Below the pieces are notes generated by a model. The model saw only the letters and a list, made by a program, of their open reading frames with translations. It was not told the DNA's origin and searched no databases. DNA of 44,729 nt from a virus. Position numbers and translations under genes: made by a program. The stretch lies in UHGV virus genome UHGV-0045723. One strand, 5' to 3'. Positions 50-44,729 of this stretch are shown here, piece after piece (position 1 is the first letter of the stretch; each line of letters opens with the position of its first letter).

Positions 50-3000
50 ATGACATATCAGGCAATTTTCACTGGCTGGGATGATCTGACGATTGAAGAC
101 CTTCTGGTCGCTTACCGGAAAGCAAAAGCCGATAGCTTCTTTGAGAATACATTTCCTGTTGCTATCAAATTTGCCGAGTATGAGCAGGAATTACTTGAAA
201 ACCTGCAAAAACTCTTAGATCTTTTGCAGAGCGAAGATGGATTCAGTAGCAATAAGAAGTTGATTGGCAAATTTCGTTTGTTACCGAAAAAATTAACCAC
301 AAAGAAAAAACATGAATCCCAAAATGGACACGTCCACTTTTCTAATCCTAAACGAGCAGCCGACCATTTATTTAATAATTTTGATCTGATACCAGAGTTT
401 CGTATTATTGGTGACTTCCCGGTTGATAGTCACATTATCTCTGCACTATGGATTAACATGGTCGGGCATAAATTTGATGCCAGCTTAGATAACTGTTGCT
501 ATGGCGCGCGGCTAAAGCGTATTCGTAATGATGAATTATTTAGCAATGAGCAGGATAATCCATTCCATATCAGTGCCGTGGGTTCTTTTAGCCCCTACTT
601 CCAGCCCTACCAAAAATGGCGTGGTGATGGCTTAAAAGCTATACGTGACGAGTTGGAAAAAGATCGTGACATTATCGCCGCCTCACTGGATTTAAAAAGT
701 TACTATCATTTTATTGATCCACTGGCTATAACCTCTGATGATCTCTATAACACACTAAACATAAAACTGACTGAGGATGAAAAAGCGTTTACTGCACAGT
801 TAGCAGTATTCTTAAAGCACTGGTCTGACGGCGCAGCGGCATTTGGAAAGAAAATAGCGTACAAAACACCTGTTATTAATGGTGGTCTGGTCATTGGATT
901 AACAGCCAGTCGGATCATTTCAAATATATTGCTACACCATTGGGATAAATTAGTCATTGAAAAACTATCACCAATTCACTACGGTCGTTATGTCGATGAT
1001 ATGTTCCTTGTAATACGCGATACAGGGACAATTACTAATAATCACGAATTTATGTTATTGCTGCAAGATAGGCTTGGCAATGATTGCGTTTATTTGAAAA
1101 ACGAGCAAAAACAAATATGGCAAATACAGCAGGGCGAGCATTTCCAGGGTAAGACCACCATCCAGTTACAATCCGATAAGCAAAAACTTTTCGTGCTTCA
1201 AGGGAGGGCTGGAATAGACCTGCTCGACAGTATCGAAAAGGAGATCTACGAGCTTTCTAGTGAACACCGCTTGATGCCTTCACCGGATCAACTGGAACAC
1301 TCCACCGCAGCTAAAGTCCTTTCCGCTGCCGGTAGTGTAGGTGAAAATGCCGATACTCTGCGCCGTGCGGATGGATTAACCATTCGTCGTTTGGGCTGGT
1401 CACTGCAATTACGCTACGTTGAAACACTGGCACGAGATCTGCCTCCAAGTGAATGGAAAGAACAGCGGGAAGAGTTTTATCAGTTTGCCTACAACCATAT
1501 TCTTAGGGCTGATAATCTATTTGCACATTTTAGTTATCTGCCAAGGCTGCTTGGCTTTGCTATCAGTATGAATGAATGGCAGCACGCGGAAAAAATTGTA
1601 CTTAAAGCTTACGAATCCATCAACCTGTTGGCATCGGTGATTACTTCAGGTAAGGAAGTGAATATAAATGGTTGCAAAACTCGAGCAGTAAATGATCTTT
1701 GGCGCTGTATAAAAGGCACATTAAGCTGGCTATTTGTTGATGCAGCGACACGATATTACAGTCCTGACAGATTATTTCTTGATAAACGTTCAAAGAAAGA
1801 AGAGTGCCTTGCGGATACATTTTTTAATCATATTTCACAAAGTCTGACGAATCTAAAGGATTTACTGGATCTTCGCTTTGATTCAGCAGATTTTTATTTA
1901 AAAGCGCCATTGGTAGCTCGAGCTGATTTAGCAAAGGAACCTTATAAACAGATCGTAAAGAGTCAGTCGGCAGAAAAACTTGTTAATCAGCGTGATAGTA
2001 AAAAAGAAGTTAAAATACTGAAATTAATGAGCGACTCATCGCTTATTGATATTGACGTTATTAAGCTATTTTTGAAATCAACCAAGAATACCCGACTGGA
2101 AAAAGTGGCTAAAGGAAATCGTAAAAACGAAAGTTACCTACCTTACATTTTCCCTACACGTCCTTTAACACCCGCTGAAATATCAGAACTGGCCCCCGAA
2201 TGTGTTGGATTACCCTCCACATCCGACAAAAAACCAGATGAGAGACCGTCCACCATTTGGGCAAAATATACTCAAGCATTACGCGGAGTATGGATCAAAC
2301 CGACGTTGCTAGCATCGGAGCAGGACTCAGATGAAGCGACAAAAAAAGCTCGGCCTAAGAAATTCATTCATATTGGCACAGACAGGAAACATAAAGTTGT
2401 CGTTGCGCTAACCAGCATTAAAACAGAGGAGGACGACTGGGCTAAAATGGCCTGCAATAAATCTAACTTGTCCCGTTCAAGGTACCAGCGGATTTCTGAA
2501 CTGGTTAATGCAACATTGAAACTATCTCCTAAACCTGATTATGTTTTATTCCCTGAGCTTTCAATCCCGTTACGCTGGGTTAACAGTATTGCTGATCGTT
2601 TGAGTTCGGCGGGTATCAGTCTAATTGCGGGAACAGAATACCGCCACTTAGACGATAATCAACTGAAGAGTGAGGCCGTACTTGTCCTTTCAGATAACAG
2701 ACTCGGCTATCCAGCGAGTGTCAAAATATGGCAACCCAAGCTGGAACCCGCCGTAGGTGAAGATGAGGCATTATTTTCAACTTATGGTAAGTCTTGGGAT
2801 TCGACACTTAATGTTAAACAACGTAAGCCGGTATATATTCATCACGGCGTCAATTTTGGCGTTATGATTTGCTCTGAACTCCAGAATAGTAAAGCGAGGA
2901 TCCGTTTTCAGGGCGCACTCGATGCATTAATGGTATTGAGCTGGAATAAAGATCTAGATACGTTTGCATCGTTGATTGAATCAGCAGCGCTGGATATTCA

Positions 3001-3259
3001 TGCCTATACTATTTTAGTGAATAACCGAAAATACGGCGATAGTCGCGTACGTTCCCCGGCAAAAGAACCCTTTATGCGTGATATTGCTCGTGTGAAGGGC
3101 GGTGATAATGACTTTGTGGTCGCTGCAACGCTGGATATCGACTCGTTAAGGGCATTTCAGAGCAGGGCAAAACGCTGGCCTAAAGGCGGCGATAAATTCA
3201 AACCGTTACCTGAAGGATTCCAGTTGGCAAAGAACCGCAAAAAGCTACCGCCAAAATAA
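50..3259 (+). CDS. Defence-type (UG/Abi) reverse transcriptase fused to C-terminal nitrilase domain; DRT type 1 (UG1)-like
   Basis: 1069-aa ORF; RT motif C YVDDMF (HYGRYVDDMFLVIRD) in N-terminal half; C-terminal half has nitrilase-superfamily Glu/Lys/Cys context (VLFPELS, KIWQPK, VMICSELQ). Confidence 0.85.
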   Translation: MTYQAIFTGWDDLTIEDLLVAYRKAKADSFFENTFPVAIKFAEYEQELLENLQKLLDLLQSEDGFSSNKKLIGKFRLLPKKLTTKKKHESQNGHVHFSNPKRAADHLFNNFDLIPEFRIIGDFPVDSHIISALWINMVGHKFDASLDNCCYGARLKRIRNDELFSNEQDNPFHISAVGSFSPYFQPYQKWRGDGLKAIRDELEKDRDIIAASLDLKSYYHFIDPLAITSDDLYNTLNIKLTEDEKAFTAQLAVFLKHWSDGAAAFGKKIAYKTPVINGGLVIGLTASRIISNILLHHWDKLVIEKLSPIHYGRYVDDMFLVIRDTGTITNNHEFMLLLQDRLGNDCVYLKNEQKQIWQIQQGEHFQGKTTIQLQSDKQKLFVLQGRAGIDLLDSIEKEIYELSSEHRLMPSPDQLEHSTAAKVLSAAGSVGENADTLRRADGLTIRRLGWSLQLRYVETLARDLPPSEWKEQREEFYQFAYNHILRADNLFAHFSYLPRLLGFAISMNEWQHAEKIVLKAYESINLLASVITSGKEVNINGCKTRAVNDLWRCIKGTLSWLFVDAATRYYSPDRLFLDKRSKKEECLADTFFNHISQSLTNLKDLLDLRFDSADFYLKAPLVARADLAKEPYKQIVKSQSAEKLVNQRDSKKEVKILKLMSDSSLIDIDVIKLFLKSTKNTRLEKVAKGNRKNESYLPYIFPTRPLTPAEISELAPECVGLPSTSDKKPDERPSTIWAKYTQALRGVWIKPTLLASEQDSDEATKKARPKKFIHIGTDRKHKVVVALTSIKTEEDDWAKMACNKSNLSRSRYQRISELVNATLKLSPKPDYVLFPELSIPLRWVNSIADRLSSAGISLIAGTEYRHLDDNQLKSEAVLVLSDNRLGYPASVKIWQPKLEPAVGEDEALFSTYGKSWDSTLNVKQRKPVYIHHGVNFGVMICSELQNSKARIRFQGALDALMVLSWNKDLDTFASLIESAALDIHAYTILVNNRKYGDSRVRSPAKEPFMRDIARVKGGDNDFVVAATLDIDSLRAFQSRAKRWPKGGDKFKPLPEGFQLAKNRKKLPPK

Positions 3260-4200: not shown

Positions 4201-4428
4201 CAAGGTACTTTGATAGCAAAGGCAAGCTGGCTGGTTCAGTCCGGAGTCTCTCTTCTTGCACTTAAAGAGATGGGAGGATGGGAAACTCTTGAAATGGTTC
4301 GTCGTTAGGCTCACCTTTCAGCCAGGCATTTCACCGGGCACGCGAGCAAAATCGATGCGATTATAAGTCGCAATGGCACAAATACGGCACAAGAGGAGAA
4401 CGTGGTGTATTTAAATATGGGGTAACTA
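4201..4428 (+). pseudogene. Tyrosine integrase C-terminal remnant (in-frame stop)
   Basis: Translation [28 protein letters not shown]-stop-AHLS... parallels the C-terminus of the intact integrase at 43516-44679 ([37 protein letters not shown]). Confidence 0.6.
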
Positions 4429-4486
4429 CTTGATTTTAATGGTGCCGATAATAGGAGTCGAACCTACGACCTTCGCATTACGAATT
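4429..4486 (-). repeat. att-type direct repeat: 3' ~47 nt of tRNA-Thr(CGU) plus short flank
   Basis: tggtgccgataataggagtcgaacctacgaccttcgcattacgaat matches the tRNA-Thr 3' end through the anticodon and diverges at the anticodon stem; a near-identical copy starts at 44694. Confidence 0.7.
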
Positions 4487-4705
4487 ATAAGAATCCGCTT
4501 CTAATTCAAAGCATTACCCCATCAACACTGCGCTCACACGTCCCACCACATCAAAACATGTAAAGCCTTGCAAGCCATTGTGAGGCCTTATGTGTCTCAG
4601 TTTTGTCCCACTACGACCTGCACAGAAAATAAGAAAATAGCGGTGATATCAAACAGTACAGAAGTCTTTTTTCTTTCAAATGGAGAAACTGATTAACCCG
4701 TTTAA

Positions 4706-4933
4706 TTGTACTCCTCATGGGTAATCAGCAGTCCTCAGAGTAATGGAATGGCAGAAAGGTTCGTGAAAACGATGAAGGAAGTCTACATCGCGTTCATGCC
4801 GAAACCGAATGTAAGAACGGCATTGCATAATCTTGCAGTGGCGATCGAATATTACAATGAAAACCATCCGCACAGTGCGTTGGGTTATCGCTCTCCGCGA
4901 GAATATCGACGTCAGCGGGTAACGTTAACTTAA
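4706..4933 (+). mobile_element. IS3-family transposase (OrfB) C-terminal fragment
   Basis: 75-aa fragment with [14 protein letters not shown] and [17 protein letters not shown], typical of the DDE transposase C-terminus; no upstream catalytic region. Confidence 0.6.
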
Positions 4934-4974
4934 GATACACCCCCTGTCTGGAAATAAGGGGGCAAGAACAATGA

Positions 4975-5727
4975 TCAGATTCCCTGGTGAGTAAGAATTT
5001 TACTTTCTGAACTCCTCTGAGAGTATTGACTTGGAGAAACACCAAAATAACGTCTAAATACATAAGTAAAGTATGAGACACTGGCATAACCACAGACCTT
5101 AGCTACTTTACTAATAGGATAACAACGAGTGCTGAGTAAATATTCAGCCATTTGCATCCTCTCATCAAGTATGATCTTACTGAATGATACCCCCTCTTCT
5201 TTCAATTTCCTCTTTAGTAAACTTTCGCTGAGATATAATCTTGATGATATATCCTTAAGACGCCATGGTGCAGATAAATCCGTATGAATAATCGTTTTAA
5301 CTTTAGCCCCTGTGCTTTTCAAACATCCAAACAGAAATACTCCAAATTGTTTTTCAGAAGAAAATGCAGAGAGACATGTAAAAGCAATAGACTCATCAAA
5401 AATTTCTATGTATTCAGCACAGTGATTAGCCCAACTAATTAATCCTTTAATTAAACTGAAGTCAGCAAAGTTTATTTTTAAATAAGATGGATATTCCCTA
5501 CAATCAGAAATATCCCTTAAGTTATTAGCTTTCAAATAGCGACTAATAAACTCAGCGCCAAAATCCGCCACTATCACTCTTTCAGGATATGTCAGGAAAA
5601 AATCTCTAGAGCTAGAGTCGACAAGTACAGATGAACCTCTCTCCAGAAACACACTCTCTTTTCCGAAATAAACATCAAAGGACTCCAAAATCAATATAAC
5701 TGAACATGTAGTTGCCATATCATCCAC
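4975..5727 (-). CDS. AraC-family transcriptional regulator
   Basis: 250-aa ORF in AT-rich DNA; C-terminal dual HTH (ISKVAKVCGYASVSYFTYVFRRYFGVSPSQY). Confidence 0.8.
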   Translation of the reverse strand: MDDMATTCSVILILESFDVYFGKESVFLERGSSVLVDSSSRDFFLTYPERVIVADFGAEFISRYLKANNLRDISDCREYPSYLKINFADFSLIKGLISWANHCAEYIEIFDESIAFTCLSAFSSEKQFGVFLFGCLKSTGAKVKTIIHTDLSAPWRLKDISSRLYLSESLLKRKLKEEGVSFSKIILDERMQMAEYLLSTRCYPISKVAKVCGYASVSYFTYVFRRYFGVSPSQYSQRSSESKILTHQGI

Positions 5728-6300
5728 CCAATTTAACTGAAACCAGGATGAAGTATATGTATATAAAGTTCACTTTGCCAAACTTCAGTATAAAAAACCA
5801 CTAAAAATAGGGTGTGATAAAAAATACCGTAACAATAAAGCAAAGGATTATAAATTCCGTTACAGTTACAAATGATACTCAAGAAACAATTCCTTAGGAA
5901 AAACTTATTTACAGCCAATAAGTAAGACACTTATATGATATCAAGTTTTCATAAAACATAACTAGGCTAAATAGCTGCGCCTAATACCGCTACACTTTTG
6001 CCAGCCCATGTTTGCCTCCGGGTATTGACCCCTTCTCTACGCAACTTCAGTTCCCACCACCAACTTTGCGGCAGCTTTGTAGGATCAATGTCTAAAAGAA
6101 TAATGGTGACCGATAAGAAAACGACTGAATAACTGCAGATTTTCGCTCGAAACCTTCCTGTCAGATCCATAGCGAATCAAGTGCTGAATGTCACAGTATC
6201 GAACAGAAAACAGTGACGATCTAACCCTTCAAGAATATTCTACGATTGTTCTGTTTAGGAAAAGCAAGGCGGGAAGTCGGGAGATAAGTCATTGATAAAG

Positions 6301-6366
6301 TGGCGGAGAGAGGGGGATTTGAACCCCCGGTAGAGTTGCCCCTACTCCGGTTTTCGAGACCGGTCC
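6301..6366 (-). tRNA. Partial tRNA-Ser(CGA) 3' fragment (att-site remnant, not a complete gene)
   Basis: Reverse complement reads GGACCGGTCTCGAAAACCGGAGTAGGGGCAACTCTACCGGGGGTTCAAATCCCCCTCTCTCCGCCA: anticodon loop CGA, long variable arm, T-arm and CCA, but no matching 5' acceptor/D-arm. Confidence 0.6.
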
Positions 6367-6446
6367 AATCATCAAACGAAACATAAAATTAATTCACATT
6401 ATGAGGAAAAGTATCTTTTTTGTACTATGTAAATTCAAAGACTTAG

Positions 6447-7316
<870 letters not shown>

Positions 7317-7376
7317 GTCTTTAAGTGATAAGCATAAACCGCAGCACGATCTTCTTGCATACGACGTGCTACGGTT

Positions 7377-7931
7377 TCATTTATCTCCGACCGGAAACTT
7401 CTTATACAGTGTCGATATACCAACATCATAGATGATCGCCACCTTCTGGCGAGGAACGCCTGATGCAATTAATCGTCCGGCCTGCTCCCATTGTTCTGGT
7501 GTAAGTTTGGGACGACGTCCACCAATTCGTCCCTGTGCGCGAGCTGCTTCCAGTCCAGCTTTTGTTCGTTCAACAATCAGTTCACGCTCCATTTCAGCCA
7601 GGGCACCCATCACATGAAAGAAAAAGCGCCCCATTGGGGTACTGGTATCAATTGAATCCGTCAGACTACGAAAGTTGATGCCTCGTTCGCGCAACTCCTC
7701 CACCAGCACGACAAGATGCCGCATACTGCGCCCCAGTCGGTCCAGTTTCCAGACCACCAGCGTGTCACCTGCCGATAATGTCCTGAGCAGCTTTTTCAGT
7801 CCTGGTCTGTCGGACTTTGTACCGCTTATCTTGTCTTCAAAAATCAGCTCACATCCTGCACAGTTCAGCGCATTACGTTGTAGATCGGTATTCTGGTCAT
7901 TTGTTGATACACGTATATAGCCAATAAGCAT
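7377..7931 (-). CDS. Serine recombinase / DNA invertase (Gin/Cin/Pin/Hin family)
   Basis: MLIGYIRVSTNDQ catalytic-serine N-terminus, resolvase core, C-terminal HTH; adjacent to invertible tail-fibre segment. Confidence 0.9.
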   Translation of the reverse strand: MLIGYIRVSTNDQNTDLQRNALNCAGCELIFEDKISGTKSDRPGLKKLLRTLSAGDTLVVWKLDRLGRSMRHLVVLVEELRERGINFRSLTDSIDTSTPMGRFFFHVMGALAEMERELIVERTKAGLEAARAQGRIGGRRPKLTPEQWEQAGRLIASGVPRQKVAIIYDVGISTLYKKFPVGDK

Positions 7932-7985
7932 GTTAAATCCCCCTGGTAAAAGCAGGAATGATGCCATTTGCTTGTTATTTCTTCA

Positions 7986-8011
7986 TTTTCATAAACGTTG
8001 GTTTGGGAGAA
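7986..8011. repeat. Invertase crossover site (gix/cix-like), left copy
   Basis: Reverse complement ttctcccaaaccaacgtttatgaaaa; first 14 nt identical to the copy at 9813-9838, in inverted orientation. Confidence 0.7.
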
Positions 8012-8413
8012 GGCTCTGCATTACCCGTAGGTGTGCCTGTTCCGTGGCCTTCAGTCACACCGCCAACAGGTTGGCTGAAATGCAACGGTGCAGCTTTTTC
8101 TGCCGAAGAGTATCCGGAACTGGCAAAAGTTTATCCGACAAATAAATTGCCAGATTTACGCGGCGAATTCATTCGTGGGTGGGATGATGGAAGAGGAATT
8201 GATTCAGGACGGACTCTCCTGTCTGCTCAGGACGGGAGCATTGAGGCACACGGCCATGATTACAATGGGGCCATCTATACTTCTAGCGGTCCTTCCTGGG
8301 CTAATACGACGGATGCGGGACACCGGGCATATTCGGGATTTACATCATCATATGGCGGGAGTGAAACCCGTCCACGAAATATTGCATTTAACTTTATCGT
8401 GAGGGCTGCATAA
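8012..8413 (+). CDS. Alternative tail-fibre C-terminal segment (silent orientation of invertible segment)
   Basis: PVGVPVPWPSVTPPTGWLKCNGAAFSAEEYPELAKVYP...NIAFNFIVRAA resembles lambda Stf-type fibre C-termini; reading frame joins GLGE at the crossover site. Confidence 0.65.
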   Translation, partial: GSALPVGVPVPWPSVTPPTGWLKCNGAAFSAEEYPELAKVYPTNKLPDLRGEFIRGWDDGRGIDSGRTLLSAQDGSIEAHGHDYNGAIYTSSGPSWANTTDAGHRAYSGFTSSYGGSETRPRNIAFNFIVRAA

Positions 8414-9015
8414 TGGATAACGCCGTATTAAATAGCGAGCTTATTGCCACGAAGGCGGGGAATATTACCGTCTATAACTATGATGGTGAAACTCGGGAAT
8501 ATATTTCCACTTCAAATGAATATCTTGCCATTGGTGTCGGTATCCCTGCATATTCCTGTTTAGATGCCCCTGGCACACATAAGGCGGGTTATGCTATCTG
8601 CCGTTCGATGGATTTAAACTCATGGGAATATGTGCCAGACCATCGCGGTGAAATCGTTTATAGCACCGAAACAGGAGAATTGAAAGAAATCACAGGTCCG
8701 GGTGATTATCCTGAAAATACGACCACTATCGCCCCGTTAACGCCATACGATGAATGGGATGGTGAGAAATGGGTGACGGATACCGAGGCACAGCATAGCG
8801 CCGCAGTAGATGCAGCAGAAGCACAGCGCCAGTCGCTTATTGATGCTGCTATGGCTTCCATCAGTCTGATTCAACTGAAATTGCAGGCCGGACGGAAGTT
8901 GATGCAGGCAGAAACAACTCGCCTTAACGTTGTGCTGGATTATATCGACGCGGTGACGGCAACAGATACCAGCACCGCGCCGGATGTCATCTGGCCTGAA
9001 CTGCCGGAGGCGTAG
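8413..9015 (+). CDS. Tail fibre assembly protein (alternative copy)
   Basis: 200-aa ORF directly after the alternative fibre segment; C-terminal TDTSTAPDVIWPELPEA mirrors TSTAPDIEWPTPPA in the minus-strand copy. Confidence 0.7.
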   Translation: MDNAVLNSELIATKAGNITVYNYDGETREYISTSNEYLAIGVGIPAYSCLDAPGTHKAGYAICRSMDLNSWEYVPDHRGEIVYSTETGELKEITGPGDYPENTTTIAPLTPYDEWDGEKWVTDTEAQHSAAVDAAEAQRQSLIDAAMASISLIQLKLQAGRKLMQAETTRLNVVLDYIDAVTATDTSTAPDVIWPELPEA

Positions 9016-9430
9016 GCCATTCAATATCGGGGGCTGTTGAAGTATCAACACGCATCAGCAGCACACGGTATTTCTTCCATTGGGTGAGAGTTGAAGTTTC
9101 TTCATCAGTTGCAATGCCCGCATCAACAGCATCCTGACGCCAGGATATTTCACTGTCAGCTTTTGCACGAAATGTGGCTTTCATGTTTTCTGCATCTGAT
9201 ATTTTCTGTTCTGGTGAAAGCGGCGGCTCATCAACCCATGCAAGGGCCCCTGAAACCATTCCCAGCATTTTTCCTGTTGGCTTATTTCCCCCATTAAATC
9301 TGACAGCATCCTCATCGCTGATTTCAATACCATCCTGCGGCCATGTCCCCTCCTTGATATAACTTTCGTATAGCGCTGCGTTGTAGATTGCATTTTCGGA
9401 AGGGCTGTAAACACTTTTAACTTTATTCAT
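8987..9430 (-). CDS. Tail fibre assembly protein (active orientation)
   Basis: 147-aa ORF immediately downstream of the tail-fibre gene on the same strand. Confidence 0.7.
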   Translation of the reverse strand: MNKVKSVYSPSENAIYNAALYESYIKEGTWPQDGIEISDEDAVRFNGGNKPTGKMLGMVSGALAWVDEPPLSPEQKISDAENMKATFRAKADSEISWRQDAVDAGIATDEETSTLTQWKKYRVLLMRVDTSTAPDIEWPTPPAVQAR

Positions 9431-9434
9431 TCTG

Positions 9435-10115
9435 TTATCTCCCTTTCGCTATATAGCAAAGATTAAACCCACCGCTACCTGACATACGGGCTGTAAAACC
9501 CGTTCTTGAAGTACCAGTTGAGTTAACTCCATAAGCAGGCATGGTTGTTGGAGAAAGCAGAGACTCCTGGATATCTGCCATTGTCAGTGTAATTGATTCG
9601 ACCCGCGCGGGGAAAGGTAGCGGGAAAACAACATTCGTCCCTGTCTGTCCAACGGGGAAACCGAAAATACCCCATTGTGTAATTACCCCATCCGGCCCCT
9701 TACTCCATCCAGATTTAGGATTCGGCCAGTCTGCTGCTCCAGAGTGCCCCGTTGTAAAACTACTCATATCTGGTACTTGCCCGGTATCCGTTCCGACGTT
9801 CCTCGTTGCCGCTTCTCCCAAACCAAGGTTTTCGAGAGCCGTTTTCACCGTGCCATCCGATTTGATATCGCCAAACGGATTCTTGCGGCTTAACAGCAGC
9901 GCACGAAGCGCGGTAAGCAGCTGGTCGTGCCGCGCCTTCTCCAGACTGGCACCGGATGCCTCCACCACGCTACAAAGTTCTTCCTGCAACATGTCAAAGT
10001 AGTCATCATCCAGATCGGTGGCAGGTGTGCCGGTCTGGGGGTTACCACGGGTAAAACCGTTCTTACCCGCGCCGAACTTATCCTTCTGCGCGGTTTTCGT
10101 GTCTATACGATGCAT
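9435..10115 (-). CDS. Tail fibre protein (constant N-terminus + invertible C-terminus)
   Basis: 226-aa ORF; crossover site lies inside the coding sequence at the ENLGLGE position. Confidence 0.75.
9813..9838. repeat. Invertase crossover site (gix/cix-like), right copy
   Basis: ttctcccaaaccaaggttttcgagag; two 12-bp half-sites around a central dinucleotide, inside the tail-fibre gene. Confidence 0.7.
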
Positions 10116-10118
10116 GGA

Positions 10119-10771
10119 TTACTCCGGATATTTAAAAATTACGTAGGTATGCGACGGGCAGAGTTTGTTAAGCACACACTCGACAACGGTGTCGCCCCAG
10201 ATACGCAGCGCGGAATCACAGGGATCGCCACATGTCATCCAGGTGGTGTTTGTGGCGGCCGGCGGGCTTTTCTCCCCGTCCCTACCCCCCCCCCCCCCCC
10301 CCCCCCCCCCCCGNNNNNNNNNNNNNNNNNNNTTTTGCCCTGCCAGTAATACCGCCATTCCGGCGCATTCACCGCGTCAGTACAGGCCGATGAGCAGGTG
10401 AACGTGCTTTTGTCGTATCGCGTGATGGTAGCGTCTGGTCTGCCCAGGGCAGCAAGCTGTGCAAGATAAAAATTCTCGTTGATGCCGCCCGCCAGGTTAA
10501 CCTTCGCATCCAGCCGTTGCTGACGCTGGCGAAGGGTCTGCGTCCCTGCCGGAATACATTCATCCGGCAGACCGCACAGACGCTCCCAGCGGTTTATCAG
10601 TTCAGTGGTGGTGCGCGGATCCAGCTCCCGCATCAGGGCATCCGCACGCTGATGAACACGGGTTAATGACGGTGCCGCACCGGCAATCGCCGGATCGCTG
10701 GCTGACCACGCCGGACCGGGCGGCAACAGTGCCGATAACAGGCGGATGTAATCATCGTTTGTCACGTCCAT
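10119..10771 (-). CDS. Mu gp48 / YmfQ-like tail protein (frame broken by assembly gap)
   Basis: N-terminus [22 protein letters not shown]...; two ORF pieces (10235-10771, 10119-10358) flank the poly-C/N gap. Confidence 0.55.
10285..10332. other. Assembly gap: 28-nt poly-C followed by 19 N
   Basis: Homopolymer abutting an N-run; disrupts the reading frame of the gene below. Confidence 0.9.
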
Positions 10772-27187: not shown

Positions 27188-27724
27188 TTAGTGGCTTTCT
27201 TCTTCCCCGCCAGGCCAATCAGACGCTGGCGGCTGCTGGGGGCGNNNNNNNNNNNNNNNNNNNNNNNNNNNNNNNNNNNNNNNNNNNNGGCGGCTGCTGG
27301 GGTCGAGTCCGAGCATTGCCCCCGTACTGCTCATCTCGGACTCCTGTTCTTTTTTGGCGGTCAGCTCCGGATTTTTGACCATACCGCCCATTGCACCGGT
27401 GATGGTGTTGCCCTGTCTGGCAATATTTTTCACGGCACGTCGCCAGAACTCGTAGGCCACGCACCACCGTTCAAGCACCGCGAGGTCAGTCACGCACAGC
27501 AGGCCCTGACCGCAGAGTTCTTTGGTTGTCAGTTGCCACATGATCGTGGCGAGAGGGAGATCTTCTTCAGCGAACCACTCCGGTGGCTCAACACCTTTGA
27601 TGGGCGTAAAAACAGGTTCATCTTTATTCAGGGCTCGCTTGCCGGGGTTTCCGGCCAGCGCCTTGCGCGCCGTTGGCTTGGGGCGACGCCCGGAACGCCC
27701 CGCCGTTCCAGCCATATGCGGCAC
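27188..27724 (-). CDS. Terminase small subunit (P27-like), interrupted by gap
   Basis: 178-aa ORF with basic N-terminus MPHMAGTAGRSGRRPKPTARK; immediately upstream of large terminase. Confidence 0.7.
   Translation of the reverse strand: MPHMAGTAGRSGRRPKPTARKALAGNPGKRALNKDEPVFTPIKGVEPPEWFAEEDLPLATIMWQLTTKELCGQGLLCVTDLAVLERWCVAYEFWRRAVKNIARQGNTITGAMGGMVKNPELTAKKEQESEMSSTGAMLGLDPSSRXXXXXXXXXXXXXXXRPQQPPASDWPGGEEESH
27245..27288. other. Assembly gap (44 N) flanked by duplicated ggcggctgctgggg
   Basis: N-run inside the small terminase ORF with the same 14-mer on both sides. Confidence 0.9.
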
Positions 27725-44693: not shown

Positions 44694-44729
44694 TGGTGCC
44701 GATAATAGGAGTCGAACCTACGACCTTCG
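44694..44729 (-). tRNA. thrW: tRNA-Thr(CGU) 3' end, truncated by window edge
   Basis: tggtgccgataataggagtcgaacctacgaccttcg is the reverse complement of the tRNA-Thr T-arm/acceptor end with CCA. Confidence 0.7.

Follow-up and report, generated by a model that had tools for sequence, protein, structure and literature searches.

A Pin-type tail-fibre inversion switch, orthologous to the e14 P segment, in a complete Mu-tailed prophage

The stretch of DNA analysed here (the window; 44,729 nucleotides of the virus genome UHGV-0045723) carries a DNA invertase gene, pin, beside a segment of about 1.8 kb that is bounded by inverted crossover sites and holds two tail-fibre C-termini, each with its own assembly chaperone (Table 1). 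The locus closes the tail operon of a complete prophage of around 38–40 kb that is SfIV-like and Mu-tailed, integrated at thrW and bracketed by thrW repeats, partial copies of which were found in the window by direct matching. ARAGORN reported no complete tRNA in the window; a serU-like 3′ fragment was spotted by eye at around 6303–6368. The gene beyond pin is PD-T4-3 (6537–7316). Poly-C/N gap artefacts occur in the draft assembly that seemingly lies behind the window.

Table 1 Features of the switch locus, in window coordinates
Feature	Coordinates	Strand	Description and evidence
pin, DNA invertase, 184 aa	7377..7931	-	Pfam, PDB, PHROG, PinE identity
Putative recombinational enhancer	7847..7909	-	Two Fis-consensus sites within the pin 5′ end
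Invertase-proximal crossover site, 26 bp	7986..8011	-	TTCTCCCAAACC-AA-CGTTTATGAAAA on minus strand; core 7998-7999
Invertible segment	8000..9824	.	1,825 bp between core dinucleotides; 1,827 bp core to core
Sv′, silent alternative fibre C-terminus	8012..8413	+	Tail-collar domain, StfE-like; Pfam Collar 8e-15
tfa′, silent-cassette tail-fibre assembly chaperone, 200 aa	8413..9015	+	TfaE-like; Pfam Caudo_TAP 9e-30
tfa, expressed-cassette tail-fibre assembly chaperone, 147 aa	8987..9430	-	Pfam Caudo_TAP 7e-33
Sv, currently expressed variable fibre C-terminus	9435..9812	-	Pfam Gp53-like_C 2e-10, residues 141-226
Fibre-proximal crossover site, 26 bp	9813..9838	+	TTCTCCCAAACC-AA-GGTTTTCGAGAG; core 9825-9826
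Sc, constant fibre N-terminal part, ~92 codons, beyond the segment	9839..10115	-	PHROG 1396
Whole fibre ORF	9435-10115	-	Sc + site + Sv

The open reading frame of pin spans 7377–7967 on the minus strand, with the ATG at 7931 as the likely true start, from which the protein begins MLIGYIRVSTNDQ. Pin is a small serine recombinase with its catalytic Ser9 within YIRVSTNDQ and a helix-turn-helix at the C terminus (Pfam Resolvase, 9e-52; HTH_7, 4e-13), and has the recombinase architecture of about 185–195 residues that is typical of the Fis- and enhancer-dependent invertases Gin, Hin, Cin and Pin. It matches the Gin invertase structures 3uj3 and 4m6f over residues 1–181 (E = 1.5e-95) and PHROG 125, 'DNA invertase' (1.6e-97), is identical to K-12 PinE at 175 of its 184 residues (95%), and is annotated as pinE in RefSeq. 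Against NCBIfam, the invertase matched other serine recombinase families below threshold only, and the fibre and Tfa proteins gave no match. A promoter and terminator scan of 7200–10250, in which counts equalled those of the shuffled background, revealed no sigma-70-like promoter for pin above that background.

The two crossover sites, which read TTTTCATAAACGTTGGTTTGGGAGAA (invertase-proximal) and TTCTCCCAAACCAAGGTTTTCGAGAG (fibre-proximal), form the top inverted repeat of the region (20 nt, 95% complementarity) and consist of imperfect 12-bp half-sites around the same 2-bp core. Both are identical at 26 of 26 positions to their counterparts in K-12 e14, the former to the pinE-proximal site and the latter to the site on the stfP side, and both can be aligned, on the pattern TTNNNNNAAACC-NN-GGTTTNNNNNAA, with the gix sites taken from the Mu genome sequence. 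They share a 15-nt core, CTTCTCCCAAACCAA. Exactly two copies of the core 14-mer, inverted relative to each other, are present in the 44.7-kb window. A search of the same window allowing up to two mismatches to it found no extra crossover site, which would have pointed to a multi-site shufflon or a Min-type system, so that a switch with two sites suffices.

The segment between the sites has the layout of a tail-fibre inversion switch, with the constant N terminus outside and two Tfa-paired C-termini inside, each in frame with it. Sc matches PHROG 1396, 'tail fiber protein', over residues 1–102 and is 96% identical in nucleotides to the 5′ part of K-12 stfP, and the fibre-proximal site falls within the fibre frame, coding for ...ENLGLGE. 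Across the site edge (written /), the join reads ...ENLGLGE/AATRN in one frame and ...NVGLGE/GSALPV in the other. The orientation in the window gives a 226-aa fibre ending in the gp53-like domain; flipping the segment in silico gives an uninterrupted fibre of 234 aa ending in the tail-collar domain, a length equal to that of the coding sequence annotated in a flipped chromosome (see below). Sv′ matches PHROG 523, 'tail collar fiber protein' (8e-70). The stretch comprising the site and the start of this cassette (7376–8211) is around 92% identical in nucleotides to K-12 stfE, and the part of Sv′ at 8212–8362 has no nucleotide match in K-12. The chaperone genes, of which tfa matches PHROG 188 (3e-52) and tfa′ matches PHROG 105 (3e-96) with 89% nucleotide identity to K-12 tfaE, converge and overlap by 29 bp. 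The initial annotation had proposed this anatomy from the letters, and the reading frames and Pfam domains bear it out: the Gin/Pin-type invertase beside a segment of about 1.8 kb, the pair of 26-bp sites, the alternative fibre C-termini and two assembly genes in opposite orientations, and the join of both frames at GLGE are all present. Its shared site sequence is likewise found in both sites and needs only to be lengthened by one nucleotide.

A putative recombinational enhancer lies in the 5′ part of pin. Two matches to the Fis consensus KNNYRNNWNNYRNNM, at gene positions 30 and 78 (7895–7909 and 7847–7861), are centred on 7902 and 7854 and thus 48 bp apart, at positions shared by the window pin, K-12 pinE and Mu gin; in all three, 96.5 bp separate the centre of the first Fis site from that of the crossover site. 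Of dinucleotide-shuffled sequences, 0.8% had a pair with 48-bp spacing in their first 150 nt. At the level of sequence, the invertase gene thus matches the two-site enhancer plan of its family, and Fis would be predicted to bind there.

Genomes containing the segment show it in both orientations. The 2,901-bp sequence flipped in silico aligns in one piece and at 100% identity with the finished MS 69-1 strain chromosome, and the orientation in the window matches, also at 100%, a second record of the same assembly (NZ_CP146678.1; GCF_037094605.1). This record is colinear with the chromosome over around 64 kb, with 100% identity across flanking segments of 20.7 kb and 14 kb, and the sole rearrangement between the two is the 1.8-kb segment (8000..9824), aligned in reverse. 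In a census of 5,426 complete E. coli genomes, the junction seen in the window (pin next to the collar domain) was present in 834 and the flipped junction (Sc next to the collar domain) in 516. The initial annotation held that the window captures one orientation, and named a single orientation with degenerate sites as the outcome that would speak against a switch; we find intact sites and both orientations at 100% identity. Inversion of the orthologous e14 P segment has been observed in K-12 cultures that were clonal (PMC4272514); PinE and PinQ carry it out at these same repeats (PMC12529663).

Taken together, we conclude with high confidence that the locus is a functional site-specific inversion switch of the Pin type (Gin/Hin/Cin/Pin family) and an orthologue of the e14 P segment. 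Its anatomy, the identity of its sites with those of e14, the intact invertase and the coexisting orientations are observed directly, and the switch is active, both orientations being present at 100% within the assembly of one strain. In the mechanism that we propose, Pin dimers would first occupy both inverted 26-bp sites and, together with Fis on the enhancer near the start of pin, would assemble a synaptic complex; cleavage at the central AA/TT dinucleotide, followed by rotation and religation, would then invert the 1.8 kb. The data resolve the crossover to within the 15 identical bases, and the central dinucleotide is the position that we propose for cleavage within them. Because the fibre-proximal site sits within the fibre gene, at the codons for GLGE, inversion exchanges the C-terminal receptor-binding domain of the fibre, with the gene for the matching Tfa chaperone travelling along. 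The two fibre tips probably confer different host ranges.

A different purpose for the same inversion would be chiefly the defence of the host, with a silent-slot or flipped fibre made by the lysogen masking receptors. The fixed DNA supplies an in-frame ATG (7958/7961) that opens a 151-aa silent-slot ORF with the hydrophobic leader MMPFACYFFIFINVGLGE; the leader ORF that begins at 7958 shows conservation with K-12 stfE (MPFACYFFIFINVGLGE). StfE2 of the orthologous segment in K-12 e14 is reported to mask receptors against T2 (PMC12529663), and defence genes flank the switch, with PD-T4-3 here and mcrA in the same slot of e14. Against this, the Shine-Dalgarno spacing of the leader ATG is poor, and the cassette from which an StfE2 equivalent would be made is not the same as in K-12. 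The prophage, moreover, seems to be complete, having genes for head, tail, lysis, regulation and integrase, so that the classical role in phage host range applies directly. No promoter for the silent-slot ORF was detected in the scan of 7200–10250, in which counts were those of shuffled background. We therefore think it unlikely that the inversion serves mainly in defence, and hold to a similar degree of doubt the more specific proposal that the lysogen expresses the silent-slot ORF, its fixed 17-aa hydrophobic leader joined to a parked receptor-binding domain, for superinfection exclusion. If this were true, each flip would change both the host range of the phage and the immunity of the lysogen to other phages, as has been claimed for StfE2 of K-12 e14, and with the neighbouring PD-T4-3 it would make this end of the prophage a switchable defence locus.

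The enzyme responsible for the inversion is presumably the neighbouring Pin. Invertases of the Gin, Cin, Pin and Hin family complement one another, and it is conceivable, if improbable, that an invertase encoded elsewhere does most of the inversion and the adjacent pin contributes little. Family members could act in trans as PinQ of the Qin prophage does in K-12, where inversion of the e14 P segment by PinQ is stronger than by PinE (PMC12529663). In that strain, however, a pinE mutant was locked in one orientation (PMC12529663), and at the present locus the adjacent pin is intact and the geometry of the enhancer is conserved, arguing for the local enzyme.

The orientations in MS 69-1 could also be explained by a real second copy of the region, as a true 64-kb episome or a duplication, in which case current activity would be undemonstrated. 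The deposited entry for NZ_CP146678.1 is indeed that of a circular plasmid. The stretch colinear with the chromosome, however, starts midway through an oxidoreductase gene and stops midway through yfdQ, the annotation of the inspected parts lacks a plasmid replication gene, and housekeeping genes (pao, ecp, ykgMO) are aboard. Towards the ends of the record, identity falls to 99.6–99.8% with 15 and 37 gap openings, as expected of a low-coverage alternative contig. Even if the copy were real, the two would still differ by an inversion at exactly these sites. We judge a second copy very unlikely; the colinearity and the indel-rich ends suggest that the record reflects a mixed population. The 64-kb 'plasmid' in a RefSeq 'complete' genome is thus very probably a spurious product of population heterogeneity at the switch, which flags a problem of assembly quality. 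Scarcely credible, finally, is a frozen relic whose repeats and invertase were left over when this element lost inversion: e14-type elements are often defective, and the switch of SfIV is destroyed, its second tfa being followed by an IS element and the gtr gene, with no invertase, but the present invertase keeps its full length and catalytic motif, neither site has decayed and both equal the active sites of K-12, and both orientations occur at 100% identity inside one strain's assembly.

The active switch that we describe belongs to a type already known and well described, and the scientific gain from one further copy, well preserved and active, of a host-range switch that phage textbooks describe is small. 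It does show the e14 P switch where it presumably originated, in a complete prophage with a Mu-type tail, and combined with another fibre cassette, in keeping with the view that phages exchange fibre tips as modules together with their chaperones.

Comparison with known systems places the locus within the family. The Hin/hix system, which controls flagellar phase variation in Salmonella, uses an invertase of the same subfamily and 26-bp sites, and its recombinase gene carries a Fis-dependent enhancer at the 5′ end (PMC3798978). The comparison also drew on a hin sequence, which the ATTTA and TAATG motifs mentioned in PMC3798978 support indirectly. Hin differs in inverting a promoter, with its gene inside its own segment, whereas the invertase of the window lies outside the segment and coding 3′ ends are exchanged.

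The initial annotation had assigned the locus to the architecture of Mu G, P1 C and e14 P, and for Mu and K-12 e14 the gene order agrees and the sites align. As in Mu G (S-U-U′-S′-gin), the switch comes directly after the Mu-type baseplate genes gp45 to gp48, and the 26-bp sites share with those of Mu the plan AAACC-NN-GGTTT. The Mu segment is longer, however (~3 kb against 1.8 kb), as is its fibre (~500 aa against 226 or 234 aa), the core dinucleotide is GA/TC in Mu and AA here, and the variable domains are unrelated. The P1 C segment with Cin has the same kind of layout as Mu G. The Shigella phage SfIV resembles the window in its baseplate, fibre and tfa, which are around 92% identical over the aligned part; for the fibre and tfa stretch, the match is to the short tail fibre region of SfIV and covers only part of the query. 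SfIV differs in having an IS element and serotype-conversion genes in place of the invertase and the alternative fibre end. Integration at thrW, next to proA, presumably uses the same site as in the SfIV/SfV phage group.

The closest relative is the e14 P segment, in which the order ymfQ-stfP-tfaP-tfaE-stfE-pinE is that of the window, with pix sites and a PinE-like invertase beside stf/tfa cassettes downstream of ymfQ; the tfa genes converge with the same 29-bp overlap, and the StfE/TfaE-type cassette is around 89–92% identical where alignable. The expressed cassettes differ: that of the window, Sv included, has no nucleotide match to the variable part of K-12 StfP or to TfaP save in the last tfa codons, and the middle of the collar domain also diverges from K-12. 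Whereas e14 is a 15-kb defective prophage at icd with mcrA after pinE, the prophage here is complete, lies at thrW and has PD-T4-3 after pin. The thrW bracketing, the full-length prophage and the replacement of mcrA by PD-T4-3 show that this is the orthologous switch in a related phage and not e14 itself; in exact terms, the locus is an orthologue of the e14 Pin/P system housed in a complete thrW prophage.

We conclude with high confidence that region 7377–10115, with the pin invertase gene and the adjoining 1.8-kb segment, is best explained as a Pin/Fis-mediated switch of tail-fibre ends. Inversion would exchange the receptor-binding end of the fibre along with its chaperone, as in the Mu G and e14 P segments, and by analogy the swap would probably alter host range. 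The initial annotation had proposed a Gin/Pin-type invertase beside a segment of about 1.8 kb with inverted 26-bp sites, enclosing two alternative fibre C termini and two assembly genes in opposite orientations. Domain searches returned Resolvase, HTH_7 and Gin matches for the invertase, and all four units were found between the sites (see the table). Both fibre frames, as had been claimed, cross the sites at the residues GLGE, and in silico inversion yields a 234-amino-acid fibre without interruption. The constant fibre N terminus directly follows the Mu-type baseplate genes Gp45, GP46, Baseplate_J and YmfQ.

Features of the fibre switch in window coordinates
Feature	Position	Strand	Basis or sequence
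pin ORF	7377-7967	-	Pfam Resolvase 9e-52, HTH_7 4e-13
Invertase-proximal 26-bp site	7986-8011	read on minus strand	TTCTCCCAAACC-AA-CGTTTATGAAAA
Promoterless fibre C terminus, tail-collar domain	8012-8413	+	ORF, domain and PHROG search
tfa', second Caudo_TAP gene	8413-9015	+	ORF and domain search
tfa, Caudo_TAP chaperone gene	8987-9430	-	ORF and domain search
Expressed fibre C terminus, Gp53-like_C	9435-9812	-	ORF and domain search
Fibre-proximal 26-bp site	9813-9838		TTCTCCCAAACC-AA-GGTTTTCGAGAG
Constant fibre N terminus, outside segment	9839-10115		

Within 7300–10200, the best inverted repeat pairs 7993–8012 with 9812–9831 (20 nt, 95% complementarity). The 14-mer TTCTCCCAAACCAA occurs in exactly two copies, inverted relative to each other, with no third copy at ≤2 mismatches anywhere in the 44.7-kb window. 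The 26-bp sites match the two of K-12 e14 without a single difference.

The window at 7300–10200 is 100% identical to NZ_CP146678.1, a record of the finished Escherichia coli MS 69-1 assembly, and two other chromosomes match equally well. When the segment is flipped in silico, the sequence instead matches the MS 69-1 chromosome (NZ_CP146675.1, 4063511–4066411) at 100% in one piece, bearing out the proposal that the window holds one orientation of two. Both outer half-sites are unaltered in that flipped chromosome, so crossover is confined to 15 identical bases including the central AA, the finest resolution that the data allow. In a survey of 5,426 complete E. coli genomes, 834 had a match spanning the pin–collar junction (window state) and 516 one spanning the constant fibre–collar junction (flipped state), counts that are approximate owing to megablast thresholds and cassette diversity. 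These orientations agree with published data for the e14 P segment, which flips inside clonal K-12 cultures (PMC4272514) and is inverted in 33% of surveyed genomes (PMC12529663).

NZ_CP146678.1 ('plasmid unnamed3', 64,057 bp) was deposited as a plasmid in a RefSeq complete genome. It is colinear with the MS 69-1 chromosome at about 4,033,468–4,097,544, doubling ecp, pao, ykgMO and the whole prophage, and the reversed 1.8-kb segment is the sole structural difference between the two. The 20.7 kb and 14 kb that flank the segment are 100% identical to the chromosome; identity falls to 99.6–99.8% with numerous small indels towards the ends, both of which lie mid-gene. Such colinearity and the degraded ends make a true 64-kb episome improbable. 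The simplest reading is an alternative contig built from minority-orientation long reads, in which case both orientations would have coexisted in the sequenced DNA; the record is very probably an assembly artefact of inversion heterogeneity.

The most plausible start codon of pin is the ATG at 7931 (MLIGYIRVSTNDQ...), which gives a product of 184 residues, 175 of them identical in K-12 PinE; RefSeq labels the gene pinE. The product matches PHROG 125 ('DNA invertase') and, over residues 1–181, the crystallized Mu Gin invertase (E=1.5e-95). At its 5′ end, pin contains two Fis consensus matches with centres at 7902 and 7854, 48 bp apart. Their gene positions (30 and 78) are shared with K-12 pinE and Mu gin, and so is the 96.5-bp distance separating the first centre from that of the nearest crossover site. 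A pair so spaced in the first 150 nt arose in 0.8% of dinucleotide shuffles. Fis would be expected to bind here, and this putative pair fits the established enhancers of Gin and Hin, which sit inside the invertase gene according to references in PMC3798978. A promoter scan of 7200–10250 returned no promoter for pin or for the silent fibre-end ORF beside it.

Two further readings are compatible with Pin-mediated switching. Another invertase may act in trans; PinE and PinQ invert the e14 P segment at the same repeats (PMC12529663). The locus may also, by analogy, serve defence alongside host range: StfE2, the equivalent K-12 chimera, is claimed to block phage T2 adsorption (2025; PMC12529663), and the fixed-start ORF at 7958 is the stfE equivalent. 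Its in-frame ATG lies in the fixed stretch that separates pin from the crossover site (7958–8011, plus strand) and equips the silent cassette with a hydrophobic leader that is conserved, reading MMPFACYFFIFINVGLGE here and MPFACYFFIFINVGLGE in K-12. The parts are intact and both orientations occur, which contradicts the reading of a frozen relic that no longer inverts.

The switch is located at one end of a complete-looking prophage (terminase, portal, capsid, Mu-like contractile tail, lysis, Q, repressors and integrase) integrated at thrW, adjoining proA. The window ends within thrW (truncated copy at 44694–44729, minus strand), and a 64-bp repeat of the thrW 3′ end (61/64 identical) lies at 4422–4485 (minus strand). 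These copies enclose about 40 kb, comprising the prophage and a small stretch at 4486–6500 with an IS fragment, an AraC-type regulator and a serU-like tRNA 3′ fragment recognized by eye (about 6303–6368), which suggests that a second element once occupied this attachment site and left remnants there. Just beyond pin, a gene at 6537–7316 (plus strand) matches PD-T4-3, an anti-phage system of one gene, over its full length (PADLOC E=2.5e-140; Pfam LEM-3-like GIY-YIG nuclease) and fills the slot held by mcrA in K-12 e14; defence cargo may tend to accumulate at this prophage end. Outside the prophage, a 1,069-amino-acid ORF (50–3259, plus strand), labelled 'hypothetical protein' in RefSeq, matches the defence reverse transcriptase RT_UG5-nitrilase (DRT) at full length (PADLOC 1034 bits) and neighbours an AbiE toxin–antitoxin pair in the finished genome. 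Two artefacts of assembly gaps are present. At 10264–10334, a poly-C run and 19 N stand where the finished genome has 3 bases, breaking the ymfQ-like baseplate gene, and at 27242–27288 the terminase region contains a run of 44 N. Window ORFs called across these gaps are artefacts.

The switch is of an already known kind, the observation being confirmed and its interpretation supported. What is new is minor: the fibre cassette differs, the phage host is intact, and activity is documented by an assembly artefact. The proposed Mu G/e14 P architecture holds: gene order is that of the K-12 e14 P region (ymfQ-stfP-tfaP-tfaE-stfE-pinE), the layout is the S-U-U'-S'-gin of Mu, and the sites follow the AAACC-NN-GGTTT plan of gix sites taken from the Mu genome. 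The constant fibre part is 96% identical to that of e14 and the collar/TfaE cassette about 89–92% where alignable, whereas the gp53-like cassette that is expressed shows no similarity at the nucleotide level to either TfaP or the variable part of StfP in K-12. The convergent tfa genes share a 29-bp overlap (8987–9015), as in e14, and both Tfa proteins end in a TSTAPD(V/I)xWP motif. The 147-amino-acid Tfa has its last codons in common with K-12 TfaP in an otherwise unrelated cassette, suggesting that cassettes were exchanged at a breakpoint within the 3′ end of tfa. Fibre tips are known to be exchanged as modules, and the 88–91% identity of the collar/TfaE cassette to fibre ends of HK97, HK106, a P2-like phage, pro483 and Klebsiella phages fits such exchange. 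On the fibre side, the nearest sequenced phages are Shigella phage SfIV and its relatives (about 92% over the aligned part). The fibre and tfa of this switch persist in SfIV (NC_022749.1, 13926–21571), as does part of its second tfa, but SfIV carries an IS element and a serotype-converting glucosyltransferase where the window has the alternative fibre end and invertase; the SfIV locus is a decayed form of this switch.
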